57,538 nt of DNA from Promethearchaeota archaeon (lineage in GTDB: Archaea > Asgardarchaeota > Lokiarchaeia > Sigyniarchaeales > SOKP01): positions 1 to 57,538 of the forward strand of contig JBHLPW010000030.1 of the NCBI GenBank assembly GCA_048939015.1, written 5' to 3'. Positions 39,561-44,409 of the stretch are shown one piece after another; position 1 is the first letter of the stretch, and each line of letters starts with the position of its first letter. Both the position numbers and the translations under genes were made by a program. The notes under the pieces are model-generated. The model saw nothing but the letters and a program-made list of their open reading frames with translations. It searched no databases and was not told the origin of the DNA.

Positions 39561-40121
39561 CTAAACCATTTTAGGGATTAGATCATCGGACTTTTTCTTT
39601 TTTGTATGGATTTCCAAAATTTTACGAGTTAGATCTTGGAGAGCTTCCTCTAAAATATCACCCTCTTCTGGTGAGACTTCGATATATACACCTCCTTTCT
39701 TCTCGGCAAATTCCCGAGCCTCCTCTCGAATAAGTTTGTTATTTGTTTGTTTCATTAATTCGATCGTGTTCCCAATTAAAATAAAAGGTATAAAGCCAGT
39801 CGTCTCATTTATCTCGGAAAACCATTCCCTTAATTCCTTATAGGTGAGTTCTTGTGATAAATCAAAAACCAATAACGCTCCTGCTGAACCTTTATAAAAA
39901 TTATCACGTAAAGACTTAAATCGATCTTGGCTTCCCACATCCCATATACTTAATGTAGCAACTTCTCCTCGTTCATATTCAATATCTCTTGTAAGAATAT
40001 CAACTCCAACAGTTAACTTGTAATTTCCAAAAAACCTATTTTTTCCGATTTTTTTAATTAATTTATTCTTACCCTTTGTTTCAGCACCTACCAGCAAAAT
40101 CTTTAACTTGAAGTTTGGCAT
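39561..40121 (-). CDS. degenerate Rab-like small GTPase
   Basis: G1 GAETKGKN, G2 TVGVD, G3 WDVGSQ, G4 GNTIE, G5 EVSP; GGAGG before ATG 40121. Confidence 0.88.
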   Translation of the reverse strand: MPNFKLKILLVGAETKGKNKLIKKIGKNRFFGNYKLTVGVDILTRDIEYERGEVATLSIWDVGSQDRFKSLRDNFYKGSAGALLVFDLSQELTYKELREWFSEINETTGFIPFILIGNTIELMKQTNNKLIREEAREFAEKKGGVYIEVSPEEGDILEEALQDLTRKILEIHTKKKKSDDLIPKMV

Positions 40122-40176
40122 AATGTTTTTTCCCTCCAATTATTGTAGAAAAAAACTTAGTATTTATAATTTGATG

Positions 40177-42123
40177 TTATGTTTGAGATTGGGTCTTAAC
40201 AGTAACAGTTATAGGTTCTTTCATTCGTCCACCACCTCCTCCAGGAGGTTTAAAGATAAATGGATAGGGAAAAAATCCGTCCTCATCATCATCTCTTTTG
40301 TGTCCGCACCATTCACAGGAATCCTTATCTTTCGGAATTTCTTTTCCACAATATGCACACCTAGAAATTACTCTTTTAACCTCATTTAGAAATTTCTTAG
40401 CAAAAATTTGCGCTTCTCCATCTCCTAATGCATTTTCATTAAAAGGATGTCCCATTAAAAATTCCATTCTTTCATTCCGAGATAATCTGGGTATATTGAT
40501 TTCCTGACCGCTAAGTTTCAAATTAATTGCTTGAATGCAATCTACAATATCTAAGGATTTATCTTCATCAGCTACACTCATGAGATTTTCGAGCGTTGTT
40601 TTAAGAGTAAGCAAAAATTTAGGATTGAAAAACTCTAAATGAGGTCGATGAGGGAATATTCTTGCCTTTAATAGAATACTCGAAATAAATATATCTTTAC
40701 CCTTAGGGAGATTTAAAATTTGTGTTATAATATCTGCACTTAACCTTGGAAACTTTGAAACAATAGTTCTAAGGAATTGAGAAAATATCCTCCGGTCAGA
40801 AGATAGATTTTTAATAAGGTCAGATGTCTCTAGAATTAATCTGAATTCTTCTGAATTGAACACATTTAAATAACCTTGAGTAAGGAGGTACTGAACGACA
40901 GAAGGGTAACCACTCTCGAGTCTCAGAGCAATTTCTTCTTTATAGATTCTTTTTGCCTTAGGGTCTCCCGCTATAGTCAACTCCCTTAGCAATGGAAATG
41001 AAATATTACTCATGAGAATCCTTGTATCATAATCATGTTCCACCCAAGCTTGAATATTAGAACAATGGCCCCAAAATTCTTGCTCTGGGGTAATATCATG
41101 GCTTTGATTTAAATCAGGACGTGCCATGGGACCCCTTACAATCCTGTTTTGAAATACATGTTTATTATATACTTTAGCTGCCTCATCGATAGAATCAACC
41201 TCATCATACAATGATATATCGTCTCTTGGAATGTTTAAGATTAAACGAATACACTGTATAAACCTTTTACCATTAACATAGATATGTGTTCTTCCATTTA
41301 TCAATTTGAGGGTGATATATTGATTTATTTCTTCTTCTATCGTTGCTTTTGGTATACTCTTATACTTTAAATTTTGATTCAACCATTCTTCACCAAACAA
41401 TTTCTTTTTTTTAGATTTTTTAAAAAATTTTGTAAAAATCATATCTTCTCGAATTAACATAACTAGTATAAATATGCCGGCTATCCCAAACATACTCCCG
41501 AAGAGTATACCGAAAAAGATTAAACCGTTCAAGAATTGTGGCTTTAATCCAATATAATTTAGTTCGATCCAGGCTATATCATCTTTCCGAGGTGCACCCT
41601 CTTTAGAATATCCTTGAATATATCCATCATTCTCTCCACCTCTTCCATATAAACAAATACTTATACCATCATTTACGATATAGTCAGGTTTCAAAGGAAT
41701 TCTAAAATCAAAACCATCGCATAAAATGTAACCATAAGATATCCCCAATTTCGGCTTATTATTCCAGGTTATAGTCATTTCATCCCACTTTTCATAGATA
41801 AGTTCTCCTCCCACATCAACCATATCCGATCCATAGTCGAAATTTACGATAATTGCTACCGTCCTCCACCCCTTAGGAAGTGAAGAAATGTTAAAGTGAT
41901 AAAACGTGTAAACCCTTCCCAAATCATAATTTCCTACGCGAAGATACTCATCTGCTCCAAAATTTGCTTTAGGATCATACTCTGCCACATAAGCATCTTT
42001 TTCAACCTTGATTGTCCGTTCAAATCCTCGAAAATGAGCCGTTATAAAGATTAAAGTCAAAGCTAAAATTCCAAGAACAATAATAAATATGATCCAAAAC
42101 TGTTTTTTAGTCCTGACTCTCAT
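40177..42123 (-). CDS. receptor-like protein: TM - DNRLRE/CBM96-like domain - TM - EFWGHCSN domain - helical region - zinc ribbon
   Basis: DAYV...NFG...WDEMTITWNNKP...YSKEG; second TM LIFFGILFGSMFGIAGIFILVMLI; EFWGHCSNIQAW; CAYC...CEWC. Confidence 0.8.
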   Translation of the reverse strand: MRVRTKKQFWIIFIIVLGILALTLIFITAHFRGFERTIKVEKDAYVAEYDPKANFGADEYLRVGNYDLGRVYTFYHFNISSLPKGWRTVAIIVNFDYGSDMVDVGGELIYEKWDEMTITWNNKPKLGISYGYILCDGFDFRIPLKPDYIVNDGISICLYGRGGENDGYIQGYSKEGAPRKDDIAWIELNYIGLKPQFLNGLIFFGILFGSMFGIAGIFILVMLIREDMIFTKFFKKSKKKKLFGEEWLNQNLKYKSIPKATIEEEINQYITLKLINGRTHIYVNGKRFIQCIRLILNIPRDDISLYDEVDSIDEAAKVYNKHVFQNRIVRGPMARPDLNQSHDITPEQEFWGHCSNIQAWVEHDYDTRILMSNISFPLLRELTIAGDPKAKRIYKEEIALRLESGYPSVVQYLLTQGYLNVFNSEEFRLILETSDLIKNLSSDRRIFSQFLRTIVSKFPRLSADIITQILNLPKGKDIFISSILLKARIFPHRPHLEFFNPKFLLTLKTTLENLMSVADEDKSLDIVDCIQAINLKLSGQEINIPRLSRNERMEFLMGHPFNENALGDGEAQIFAKKFLNEVKRVISRCAYCGKEIPKDKDSCEWCGHKRDDDEDGFFPYPFIFKPPGGGGGRMKEPITVTVKTQSQT

Positions 42124-42291: not shown

Positions 42292-42678
42292 CTAATTATC
42301 TTTTTTTAAAAGTTCTGATATTTCACGTGCAACCCGCTCGCATTCATGAAAGATAAGACCTAATTTCGCTTTTTCAGTAGTAGAAACTGCTAACACCGCA
42401 GTGTCGGCATCAAATACTAATAGATATCCATCAACTCCCTTGATATATAGTTGGTTGAATTCACCAATTTCCATTTCTACCATAGCCATTTCAGATAACG
42501 AGAGCATTGAAGCGACCATAGCCGAAATTCTCGTTTCATTATAACCTTCAGGGATTAGTGAGAGAATTGGGAGCCCTTCAACGGAAGAAATTGTGGCAAT
42601 TGAAATAGTAGAGTTATTCGATAATAATTTTTTTAAAATTCTTTCCAATTCCTTTAGCAAATTATTTTCTCCTTTCAT
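42292..42678 (-). CDS. Roadblock/LC7 (MglB-like) protein
   Basis: SSVEGLPI, ISAMVASMLSLSE, QLYIKGVDGYLL, KAKLGLIF. Confidence 0.92.
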   Translation of the reverse strand: MKGENNLLKELERILKKLLSNNSTISIATISSVEGLPILSLIPEGYNETRISAMVASMLSLSEMAMVEMEIGEFNQLYIKGVDGYLLVFDADTAVLAVSTTEKAKLGLIFHECERVAREISELLKKDN

Positions 42679-42699
42679 ACTTTTTGGTACCTATGTTTC

Positions 42700-42870
42700 T
42701 TAACGAATTTTTTTAGCAATTTCATTTAGTTTAGCTAATTGCTTACGATCTATAGGGATATCCTCATTCGGACTATAAGTTTTAAGAGTTTTTAATAAGT
42801 CTTGACACATCTCTAAAAGAAATTCTATATCTTTCGGTATTCGAATATAGTTATTTTCGATATTGGGCAT
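42700..42870 (-). CDS. 56-aa helical hypothetical protein (not in ORF track)
   Basis: MPNIENNYIRIPKDIEFLLEMCQDLLKTLKTYSPNEDIPIDRKQLAKLNEIAKKIR*; ends 21 nt before the Roadblock start on the same strand. Confidence 0.6.
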   Translation of the reverse strand: MPNIENNYIRIPKDIEFLLEMCQDLLKTLKTYSPNEDIPIDRKQLAKLNEIAKKIR

Positions 42871-42897
42871 CTCAAGTCATTGAATTAGCTATAATAT

Positions 42898-43047
42898 TGT
42901 ATATTAAAGTATATACATCTGTATATTAATTGTATACTTGCATATTTAAATTTTTCTGTTTTAATATCATTTAAATGTTTATCTCCACATATTTATATAT
43001 GATAATATACAATTAATATACAAAGAAAAATATACAAATAATATACA
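42898..43047. promoter_or_regulatory. divergent promoter with an inverted array of AATATACA boxes
   Basis: AATATACA at 43004, 43015, 43029, 43040; its reverse complement TGTATATT at 42898 and 42920, and TGTATACT at 42931; perfect 17-bp inverted repeat 42920-42936 / 43006-43022. Confidence 0.7.
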
Positions 43048-43092
43048 CAATGCAATAAACGCCAATAAAACACCAATAAAAGGTGAGAAATT

Positions 43093-43914
43093 ATCTCTGA
43101 ACTTGAACTGAGCAACAAAGACCGTATTTTGAATCTTCTTAAAACTGATTCATTAACAAGCAATGAAATTGCAAAAAGGCTCAATTTAAGTAGACAAGAT
43201 ACTCGTACTTATCTTCAACGTTTGAAAAAACGAGAAAGGATTAAAACCCTCGGGAAACGAGGAAGGCAATACATCTACACCTATCATATTCCTGAAGAGT
43301 CAGAAAGACCTCAAATTGATACTAATATGCTAGTAGAAGTCTTACGAGATTATATCTCTGAACCCAGTTTTAAAAGCGAAGTTAGAAAGAAAATTATAGA
43401 GCTCGAAGCGAAGCTTAATAGTATAGCCTCGAGAACTGAAGGAGAATATGACGAATTAGCAAAGGAACTTGAAATGCTACAATCCATCGAACCCTCTGAT
43501 AAACAAAAAGCAAGATCCTTAGAATTCTTAACCAGGGAAACATTACAAACCCCTGTTTTAGAAAATATTGATAATACCTTGTTAAATTTAATTGATACCA
43601 TTCCGGAAGTAAGGGCTGCCACTCTCGTTTCCGTTGAAGGAGAAATTATAGCTTCGGCTTTTCCTCAAGATGTAGATGATACAACACTTGCCGTAATGAC
43701 TGCCGCACTTCTTTCACTAGCGGAAAGTGCCATAACATTAATAAAAAGCGGTGAATTTGAACAATTATATATACGGGGAAACAATGGATACCTTCTGGTT
43801 ATACCAGCAGGCCCTAAAGCTGTATTTTCGGTTTCTACAACTCAAGATGTTAAACTTGGACTAATATATCTCGATTGCAAGCGAGCAGTTGAACAAATAA
43901 CAAAATTAATTTAA
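43093..43914 (+). CDS. winged-HTH - coiled coil - Roadblock/LC7 fusion protein
   Basis: KDRILNLLK..LTSNEIAKRLNLSRQDTRTYLQRLKK..I and C-terminal VSVEGEII...AALLSLAE...QLYIRGNNGY...VKLGLIY; proposed ATC start at 43093 (ORF track: TTG 43129). Confidence 0.88.
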   Translation: MSELELSNKDRILNLLKTDSLTSNEIAKRLNLSRQDTRTYLQRLKKRERIKTLGKRGRQYIYTYHIPEESERPQIDTNMLVEVLRDYISEPSFKSEVRKKIIELEAKLNSIASRTEGEYDELAKELEMLQSIEPSDKQKARSLEFLTRETLQTPVLENIDNTLLNLIDTIPEVRAATLVSVEGEIIASAFPQDVDDTTLAVMTAALLSLAESAITLIKSGEFEQLYIRGNNGYLLVIPAGPKAVFSVSTTQDVKLGLIYLDCKRAVEQITKLI

Positions 43915-43983: not shown

Positions 43984-44409
43984 TTAGCTAAGTGAATTAA
44001 TGTGGCTTACATATCCTTTCTCAATTTCCCGCTTTCTTAAGATTTTTGCGATTTTATCCGACGCATTCTTACAATCAAATAAAACTAGCCCCATTTGCGC
44101 TTTTGGTGTAGTTGAAACTGCCAATATGGCTTCCTCTGTTCCAAGAATCAATAAATAACCATCAATTCCCTTGACATATATTTGTTCAAATATCCCTATT
44201 TTCATATCTTCGACAGCCATTTCGGATATAGAACGTATTGAAGCAACCATTGCAGCGATTTTCTGATTATTATATTTTCGGGGTATTAGCGAGAAAATTG
44301 GGATACCTTCTATTGAAATAATTATCGCAAATTTTAATTCTCTATTATTATGTAACAAATCTTTTAATACAGCTTCTAGTTTCTCTGTTGTAGTATTTTC
44401 CTTATTCAT
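43984..44409 (-). CDS. Roadblock/LC7 (MglB-like) protein
   Basis: ISIEGIPI, IAAMVASIRSISE, QIYVKGIDGYLL, AQMGLVL. Confidence 0.92.
   Translation of the reverse strand: MNKENTTTEKLEAVLKDLLHNNRELKFAIIISIEGIPIFSLIPRKYNNQKIAAMVASIRSISEMAVEDMKIGIFEQIYVKGIDGYLLILGTEEAILAVSTTPKAQMGLVLFDCKNASDKIAKILRKREIEKGYVSHINSLS

Follow-up and report, generated by a model that had tools for sequence, protein, structure and literature searches.

We describe here a gene of an Asgard archaeon in which a winged helix-turn-helix (wHTH), a coiled coil and a Roadblock domain are joined in a single protein. The fusion is probably a lineage-specific one-component regulator, a local autorepressor that carries the Roadblock as a swappable input or dimerisation domain, and it probably represses both its own promoter and a facing signalling operon via a double box found only there. 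The layout of a one-component wHTH autorepressor is known, whereas a Roadblock, a eukaryote-signature domain, is unprecedented as its input domain; our literature search found no description of a wHTH-Roadblock fusion regulator. The gene lies in the window, by which we mean the whole low-GC (about 31%) stretch of 57,538 nucleotides that was analysed, contig C117 of a MAG of 4.86 Mb that is 94.9% complete. The gene and its parts are as follows.

43093-43914, plus strand: wHTH-coiled coil-Roadblock gene, 273 aa; probable start ATC 43093 (ATT 43090 possible), stop TAA 43912-43914
43114-43284, plus strand: winged helix-turn-helix, residues 8-64
43363-43482, plus strand: long heptad helix, a putative coiled-coil dimerisation element, residues 91-130
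43549-43908, plus strand: Roadblock/LC7 domain, residues 153-272

The first-pass annotation had read an N-terminal winged HTH, a central coiled coil and a complete C-terminal Roadblock in this frame, and all three are borne out. In Pfam, HTH_24 covers residues 11-51 with 24.3 bits against a cut-off of 21.9, and Robl_LC7 (PF03259) covers residues 160-247 with 66.9 bits against a cut-off of 23 (E 1.3e-18); the ArsR, TrmB, MarR and HTH_11 models all score slightly under their cut-offs on the wHTH, TrmB (PF01978) reaching 19.5 bits against 25.6. An AF2 model built on an alignment of 56 sequences predicts three helices (residues 8-18, 23-29 and 34-46) followed by a beta-hairpin wing (50-64), at pLDDT about 90-97, and hence a full winged helix over residues 8-64. 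A second AF2 model, of residues 1-132 (pLDDT 84.9), places a helix at 77-89 and then a single long helix of 40 residues at 91-130, preceded by an invariant EPSFK segment. The hydrophobic residues of this helix (F93, V97, I101, L104, L108, I111, T115 as an exception, Y119, L122, L126 and L129) keep a 3-4 heptad rhythm when read from the sequence, and the label coiled coil is thus a reasonable one. Residues 130-152 are modelled as a disordered linker, and residues 153-272 as a canonical Roadblock fold of the order alpha-beta-beta-alpha-beta-beta-beta-alpha (helices 153-169, 196-218 and 258-272; strands 173-180, 185-189, 225-229, 232-238 and 243-249). The ORF is confirmed as a real fusion and not a product of chance, since 78 homologues with 51-76% identity retain the entire architecture; an exhaustive representative library holds about ten proteins at E 1e-30.

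Both ends of the protein have informative relatives. The recognition helix (residues 34-46) is near-invariant among homologues, and residues 1-66 carry a net charge of about +9. In a structure search the nearest folds of the N-terminal half are BlaI/MecI, the MarR-type proteins ZitR, AdcR and MepR, the ArsR-type proteins CzrA and SmtB, and archaeal 1sfx, so that the structural neighbours of the modelled domain are DNA-binding repressors. The fused Roadblock matches 7f8m at E 5e-25 in a PDB profile search, while its top Foldseek matches are the solved Asgard Roadblock homodimers 9jue, 7f8m and 7yh1 together with MglB, at E about 1e-9; the alignment of relatives shows many invariant positions in it.

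The start of the gene is unusual. The upstream frame is closed by the TGA at 43084-43086, which lies inside the Shine-Dalgarno sequence, and the frame of the fusion opens straight after it; no ATG, GTG or TTG occurs in this frame before TTG 43129, and a start there would remove the first helix.

43082-43086, plus strand: Shine-Dalgarno sequence GGTGA, conserved in relatives as AAGGGTGA-GAA-ATA-ATC

A conserved AUC, AUA or AUU codon, the likely start, stands 6 nt behind a conserved GGGTGA Shine-Dalgarno, and the arrangement of AAGGGTGA, GAA, ATA and ATC is kept nearly letter-for-letter in 14 of 15 related loci, the second Ile codon being ATC in 12 loci and ATA or ATT in two. The Shine-Dalgarno and the AUH start are retained even in loci that have an ATG eight codons downstream. 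Translation likely starts at AUC 43093, with AUU 43090 as a possible alternative; the coordinate given in the first-pass annotation was right, and only the nature of the codon, a non-canonical ATC, needed correcting. The Shine-Dalgarno argument draws on general archaeal knowledge and on the SD-like AAGGTG motifs that precede several ordinary genes of the window, a 16S rRNA gene not being found in the 94.9%-complete MAG. Because the start is non-canonical, gene callers truncate the fusion: homologues are called as proteins of 261/262 aa or 196 aa and named merely "roadblock/LC7 domain-containing protein", a label that hides the DNA-binding half. Both domains have nevertheless been noticed by automatic annotation in a few records (the JGI name of P0048 and an ESM Atlas cluster). 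A weak AUC, AUA or AUU start behind a strong Shine-Dalgarno would keep the regulator scarce.

Upstream of the gene, positions 42898-43047 form a mirror-symmetric divergent promoter region with the following elements.

42991-43000, plus strand: TATA-like element of the wHTH-Roadblock promoter, ATTTATATAT, within a near-invariant 42-nt block
43005-43047, plus strand: four ATATACA boxes, at 43005, 43016, 43030 and 43041, forming two exact ATATACA-N4-ATATACA double boxes
42944-42951, minus strand: TATA-like element of the facing operon promoter, ATTTAAAT
42898-42937, minus strand: mirrored boxes, with a double box at 42920-42937 that has 1 mismatch

The near-invariant 42-nt block spans ATCCCC and the TATA element and runs up to the double box. 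All relatives keep the first plus-side double box, which falls between the TATA box and the position expected for the transcription start site. A second exact double box follows at 43030-43047 in the window, where most relatives have one pair. On the minus side, the boxes read along the plus strand as TGTATAT (42898), ATATACA (42911), TGTATAT (42920) and TGTATAC (42931), so that a palindromic pair, TGTATAT at 42898-42904 and ATATACA at 42911-42917, stands beside the double box. In archaea the centre of the TATA box lies about 26-27 bp before the start site, and by this measure one double box on each side falls between TATA and start site. Within a double box the two boxes are 11 bp apart; a symmetric dimer does not usually bind to direct repeats with this spacing.

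These sites are conserved, dense and unique. Pairwise identity across 14 loci averages 82% in the 128-nt intergenic core but 59% at the four-fold degenerate sites of the neighbouring gene, a comparison in which the loci are not independent, all carriers belonging to one GTDB family and mostly to one genus, and in which part of the non-coding conservation reflects kinship. One further copy of the gene was excluded from the promoter analysis: L017:3458-3930 in genome G227 (the same place as L002) is a wHTH-Roadblock copy without promoter, boxes or first helix, with PIN/MazE toxin-antitoxin genes inserted directly upstream, and may be decaying or rewired. The intergenic region has 15-32 boxes per kb, compared with 0-1.4 in other sequence, and the window holds three double boxes where 0.07 are expected. 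In the whole 4.86-Mb genome the exact double box occurs only at the wHTH-Roadblock locus; allowing one mismatch gives seven sites outside the locus, the same number as for the control pattern, and hence no extra regulon sites over control. The possibility that the conserved core is a known RNA was rejected, a scan of 42600-43300 giving no Rfam family match beyond one chance-level hit at E 0.62.

The gene has a narrow range. Its family-specific N-terminal half was found in 20 of 53 genomes of the window's genus, in 1 of 10 and 1 of 42 genomes of two sister genera, and in none of 266 sampled genomes of other Asgard families; the gene is accessory within the genus. NCBI labels of the homologues name Loki-, Thor-, Hod-, Hermod- and Heimdall-archaeota, but a wide phyletic spread was rejected, as the genome search places every carrier in one GTDB family, and the varied phylum labels are therefore no evidence of a wide range. 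The boxes follow the gene closely. Eighteen of 54 genomes of the genus contain the exact double box, always on the contig of the wHTH gene and on its side, and none of the genomes without the wHTH gene contains it; the control pattern is absent from all 54. The 56-aa ORF that opens the facing operon has nearly the same distribution in the genus as the double box. On another contig of the source genome, C72:82828-83070 (plus strand) holds a 112-aa ORF with only a related wHTH, 43% identical to residues 5-89 of the fusion, and possibly a second genomic member of its DNA-binding family.

Domain swaps extend this picture. In genome G203 (and in G214, contig C257), the same operon, made up of the 56-aa ORF, a Roadblock and the two-TM protein, and the same double boxes face a regulator composed of a gelsolin-like domain, the wHTH and the coil, with no Roadblock of its own; this gene (L028:3053-3925, plus strand) has an ordinary ATG start, and its gelsolin-like N-terminal domain scores 19.7 bits, slightly under the cut-off of 21. 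In G263, which belongs to another genus, the genome's only exact double box, accompanied by a mirrored copy with one mismatch, stands upstream of a wHTH-coil-Ras protein (L031:3287-5824, plus strand) of at least 846 aa, with an N-terminal region, the same wHTH and coil, one or more Ras GTPase domains and a zinc ribbon. Its wHTH (62% identity to that of the window) has a recognition helix that is equal at all but one position. The gene divergent from it encodes a 356-aa protein ending in a zinc-ribbon-like CxxC pair. In G173, from a third genus, the only exact double box is again upstream of a wHTH-Roadblock gene. What stays together is thus the wHTH, the coil and the boxes, whereas the attached domain is exchanged, and this holds through three architectures in three genera. 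No stronger evidence is available here that the wHTH recognises the boxes and that the Roadblock is a modular input, not a piece of the DNA-binding core.

The first-pass annotation had suggested a search for architectures that join HTH and Robl_LC7. The ESM Atlas contains a cluster named HTH_24+Robl_LC7 (53 members, a 194-aa representative, label Bathyarchaeota), which may be the family's own cluster or a shorter relative. Among the 150 best relatives of the Roadblock there is no second HTH fusion; the fusions present there are to AAA_22, Ras (with or without a zinc ribbon), DUF4388/PatA_N, receiver, CDC48_N and zinc-ribbon domains.

Around the fusion gene lie the facing operon and a second free Roadblock.

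42700-42870, minus strand: 56-aa ORF of unknown family, first gene of the facing operon, conserved with ten invariant positions
42292-42678, minus strand: free Roadblock "RblUp", 128 aa, Pfam 33.4 bits, of a distinct long-stem Roadblock clade
40177-42123, minus strand: two-TM protein, 648 aa, with a CBM96 ectodomain, a conserved unnamed cytoplasmic domain and a zinc ribbon
39561-40139, minus strand: Ras-family GTPase-like protein, 114.6 bits, with degenerate G1, G3 and G4; a variable operon member
43984-44409, minus strand: second free Roadblock "RblDn", 141 aa, Pfam 35.5 bits, convergent with the fusion gene

The 56-aa ORF and RblUp face the fusion gene in 12-13 of 14 loci, and the two-TM CBM96/zinc-ribbon protein follows in the operon in at least eight. 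The Ras-like protein reads GAETKGKN at G1 (N in place of S/T), DVGSQ at G3 and NTIE at G4, and may, judging from these motifs, be a pseudo-GTPase. In one relative (L014:823-1485, minus strand) a 220-aa protein follows the two-TM protein in place of the Ras-like gene, and its N-terminus looks longin- or Roadblock-like by eye. In two others (L005:4209-4589 and L007:4212-4586, both minus strand) the free Roadblock orthologues have an Ile codon in first position of the alignment, against Met in the rest, which may be a further non-canonical start in the locus.

That the two flanking free Roadblocks resemble each other, as first noted, is correct: both pass Pfam and they are 50% identical. They differ in standing. 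RblDn occurs in 2-3 of 14 loci, is nested within the RblUp clade in the tree and has no ATATACA boxes at its promoter; by its placement it is a recent duplicate, which leaves RblUp as the sole conserved Roadblock neighbour. The fused domain is 40% identical to RblUp and 35% to RblDn, and their clade sits apart from it on a long, fully supported stem. It groups instead with a free 125-aa Roadblock on another contig of the same genome (L026:2998-3375, minus strand, contig C54), with 57% identity and with the last seven residues (EKIAKLI against EQITKLI) shared apart from one K/T difference. The tree thus derives the fused Roadblock from a generic free Roadblock and not from its neighbours, and the one on contig C54 is its likely source and a candidate partner.

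The mechanism that we consider probable brings these observations together. The N-terminal winged helix would bind the ATATACA-N4-ATATACA double boxes, in mirror orientation, at the regulator's own promoter and at the facing promoter, the latter driving an operon of the 56-aa ORF, the free Roadblock, the two-TM receptor-like protein and the Ras-like protein. When bound, the regulator would bar RNA polymerase from either promoter (promoter occlusion), and it would have no further target elsewhere in the genome. It would be a dimer, held together by the heptad helix and probably also by the Roadblock. As an exchangeable input domain, the Roadblock would recognise either a free Roadblock or a small GTPase as its partner, and partner binding would shift the seating of the two winged helices on the DNA so that repression is relieved or tightened. 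The conserved, genome-unique boxes and their co-occurrence with the wHTH lend indirect support to sequence-specific DNA binding. The earlier proposal of a transcription factor is, at the level of sequence and predicted fold, well supported in this form, by a repressor-like wHTH fold and by boxes that lie over both core promoters and persist through the domain swaps. As to what the Roadblock binds, a GTPase, a generic free Roadblock or pure dimerisation appear about equally likely.

A wider reading, possible though tentative, makes one wHTH-coil-operator cassette the family-wide transcriptional output of several inputs: Roadblock, gelsolin-like (G203/G214) or Ras (G263). The cassette would then wire the state of GTPases, Roadblocks and the cytoskeleton to expression, and at the fusion locus the Roadblock would sense a product of the very operon under its repression, either a free Roadblock or a GTPase.

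Alternative readings differ from the preferred autorepressor mainly in what they make of the Roadblock. First of all, the fusion could be active as a homodimer, with the free Roadblocks, chiefly RblUp, heterodimerising with it and breaking the DNA-binding dimer in an anti-repressor feedback. RblUp is well placed for such a part, being a conserved divergent neighbour with 40% identity to the fused domain and a similar alpha2 helix. The comparison of homo- and heterodimer proposed in the first-pass annotation took the form of a competitive prediction in which one RblUp was scored as partner to two copies of the fused Roadblock. RblUp scored 0.52 against 0.19 for the best of three controls (runs agreeing in at least 76% of contacts, partner pLDDT at least 80), a result to be read against a calibration in which 58 of 80 solved complexes passed the mark along with 2 of 110 mismatched pairs, and in which scores of 0.60 or under accounted for 7 of the 80 solved complexes and both passing mismatches. 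The prediction weakly favours RblUp as a partner; Roadblock dimers have already been solved, and the score may reflect memory of, or likeness to, these structures. Against the reading stand the long stem that separates the RblUp/RblDn clade from the fused domain, the closer kinship of that domain to a Roadblock of another contig, and RblDn, which is neither conserved nor equipped with boxes. Moreover, the gelsolin-type regulator of G203 faces the same operon without any Roadblock of its own, and because such relatives keep operon and boxes, pairing between Roadblocks is dispensable for the circuit. The idea of free Roadblocks as heterodimerising anti-regulators, put forward in the first-pass annotation, is doubtful in its general form, and we regard even the version centred on RblUp as unlikely.

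Second, the Roadblock could dock a small GTPase in one nucleotide state, as in MglB-MglA and Ragulator-Rag, and report a Ras-like switch to transcription. Its predicted fold is closest to MglB and to the Asgard Roadblock dimers, Ras-family genes are found within or next to the locus both in the window and at five related loci (L001, L005, L008, L009 and L011), and P0178/G263 has this wHTH joined directly to one or two Ras domains. The GTPase is, however, no fixed member of the locus, and the window's own copy is degenerate in G1, G3 and G4; this reading is rather unlikely as well.

Third, and just as doubtful, the Roadblock could be a constitutive dimerisation domain only, the protein being a plain autorepressor that adjusts how much of the operon is expressed and takes in no signal through the Roadblock. 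Such domains do serve as dimerisation platforms (the solved homodimers 9jue and 7f8m), and the circuit is kept in relatives with other domains or none; as these run the same promoter without a Roadblock, the domain may add nothing to regulation beyond dimerisation. The heptad helix, on the other hand, already offers dimerisation, including in the variants that lack a Roadblock, and the strong conservation of the fused domain suggests a partner surface.

Finally, it is very improbable that the winged helix is a protein-interaction or GEF-like module for a small GTPase and the boxes are bound by another factor: MfpC, the HTH-like DUF742 protein of the mycobacterial conservon, is reported to act as a GEF and not as a DNA binder (PMC11343762), and the gene set of the locus (membrane protein, Roadblock, HTH, Ras-like) parallels the conservon (PMC8510531), but the fusion has no DUF742 match in Pfam at E up to 0.1, its wHTH is strongly basic with repressors as nearest folds, and the boxes, sole exact copies in each genome, follow the wHTH over three architectures and three genera.

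Several known systems share part of the design of the fusion locus. Like the actinobacterial conservons (CvnA-D / MfpB-E), the locus brings together a membrane protein, a Roadblock, an HTH-type protein and a Ras-like GTPase (PMC8510531, PMC11343762), both the Roadblock (42292-42678) and the Ras-like GTPase (39561-40139) being present, the latter degenerate and not conserved. Unlike the conservons, it has neither a HATPase kinase (the 648-aa membrane protein matches CBM96 and zinc ribbon only) nor DUF742; its HTH is fused to a Roadblock, its GTPase is variable, and its genes diverge around an operator-bearing promoter. Like BlaI/MecI, its top structural matches, the N-terminal half of the fusion is a wHTH followed by a helical dimerisation region, a similarity that is weak (E about 3e-4, 14-19% identity); BlaI and MecI are inactivated by proteolysis and have no Roadblock. 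The closest parallels in layout are archaeal. The TrmB family, MDR1, LrpA and Phr are archaeal autoregulatory wHTH repressors, of which MDR1, LrpA and Phr act by promoter occlusion. Similarly to TrmB-type regulators, the fusion has an N-terminal wHTH, an amphipathic dimerisation helix and a C-terminal input domain, and as in the archaeal wHTH repressors its candidate operator lies between TATA box and expected start site at its own and the neighbouring promoter; the proposed mode of repression is drawn by analogy from what is established for these families. The likeness to TrmB is one of layout only, since the input is a Roadblock in place of a sugar-binding domain and the TrmB model scores below its cut-off; in addition, unlike that of TrmB-type repressors, the candidate operator consists of mirrored direct-repeat double boxes at two divergent promoters. 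The Roadblock itself shares its fold, with clear sequence similarity, with the stand-alone Asgard Roadblocks (7f8m from Thorarchaeota; 9jue and 7yh1 from Prometheoarchaeum MK-D1) and MglB. Those are free dimers of 117-160 aa that act on GTPases, whereas the domain of the fusion is tethered to a DNA-binding module, and its resemblance to an MglB-type GAP is one of predicted fold only.

Asgard archaea have many Roadblock, longin and small-GTPase genes. A structural survey of these proteins found that their operons give few clues and that regulation by transcription factors may be used (PMC10933270). The present locus is a compact test case for this, as a Roadblock is here covalently tied to a DNA-binding domain. 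It offers a defined 18-bp candidate operator that is unique in the genome, with a conserved set of candidate partners adjacent to it, and it thereby makes the link between eukaryote-like signalling parts and transcription testable with purified proteins and without culturing.
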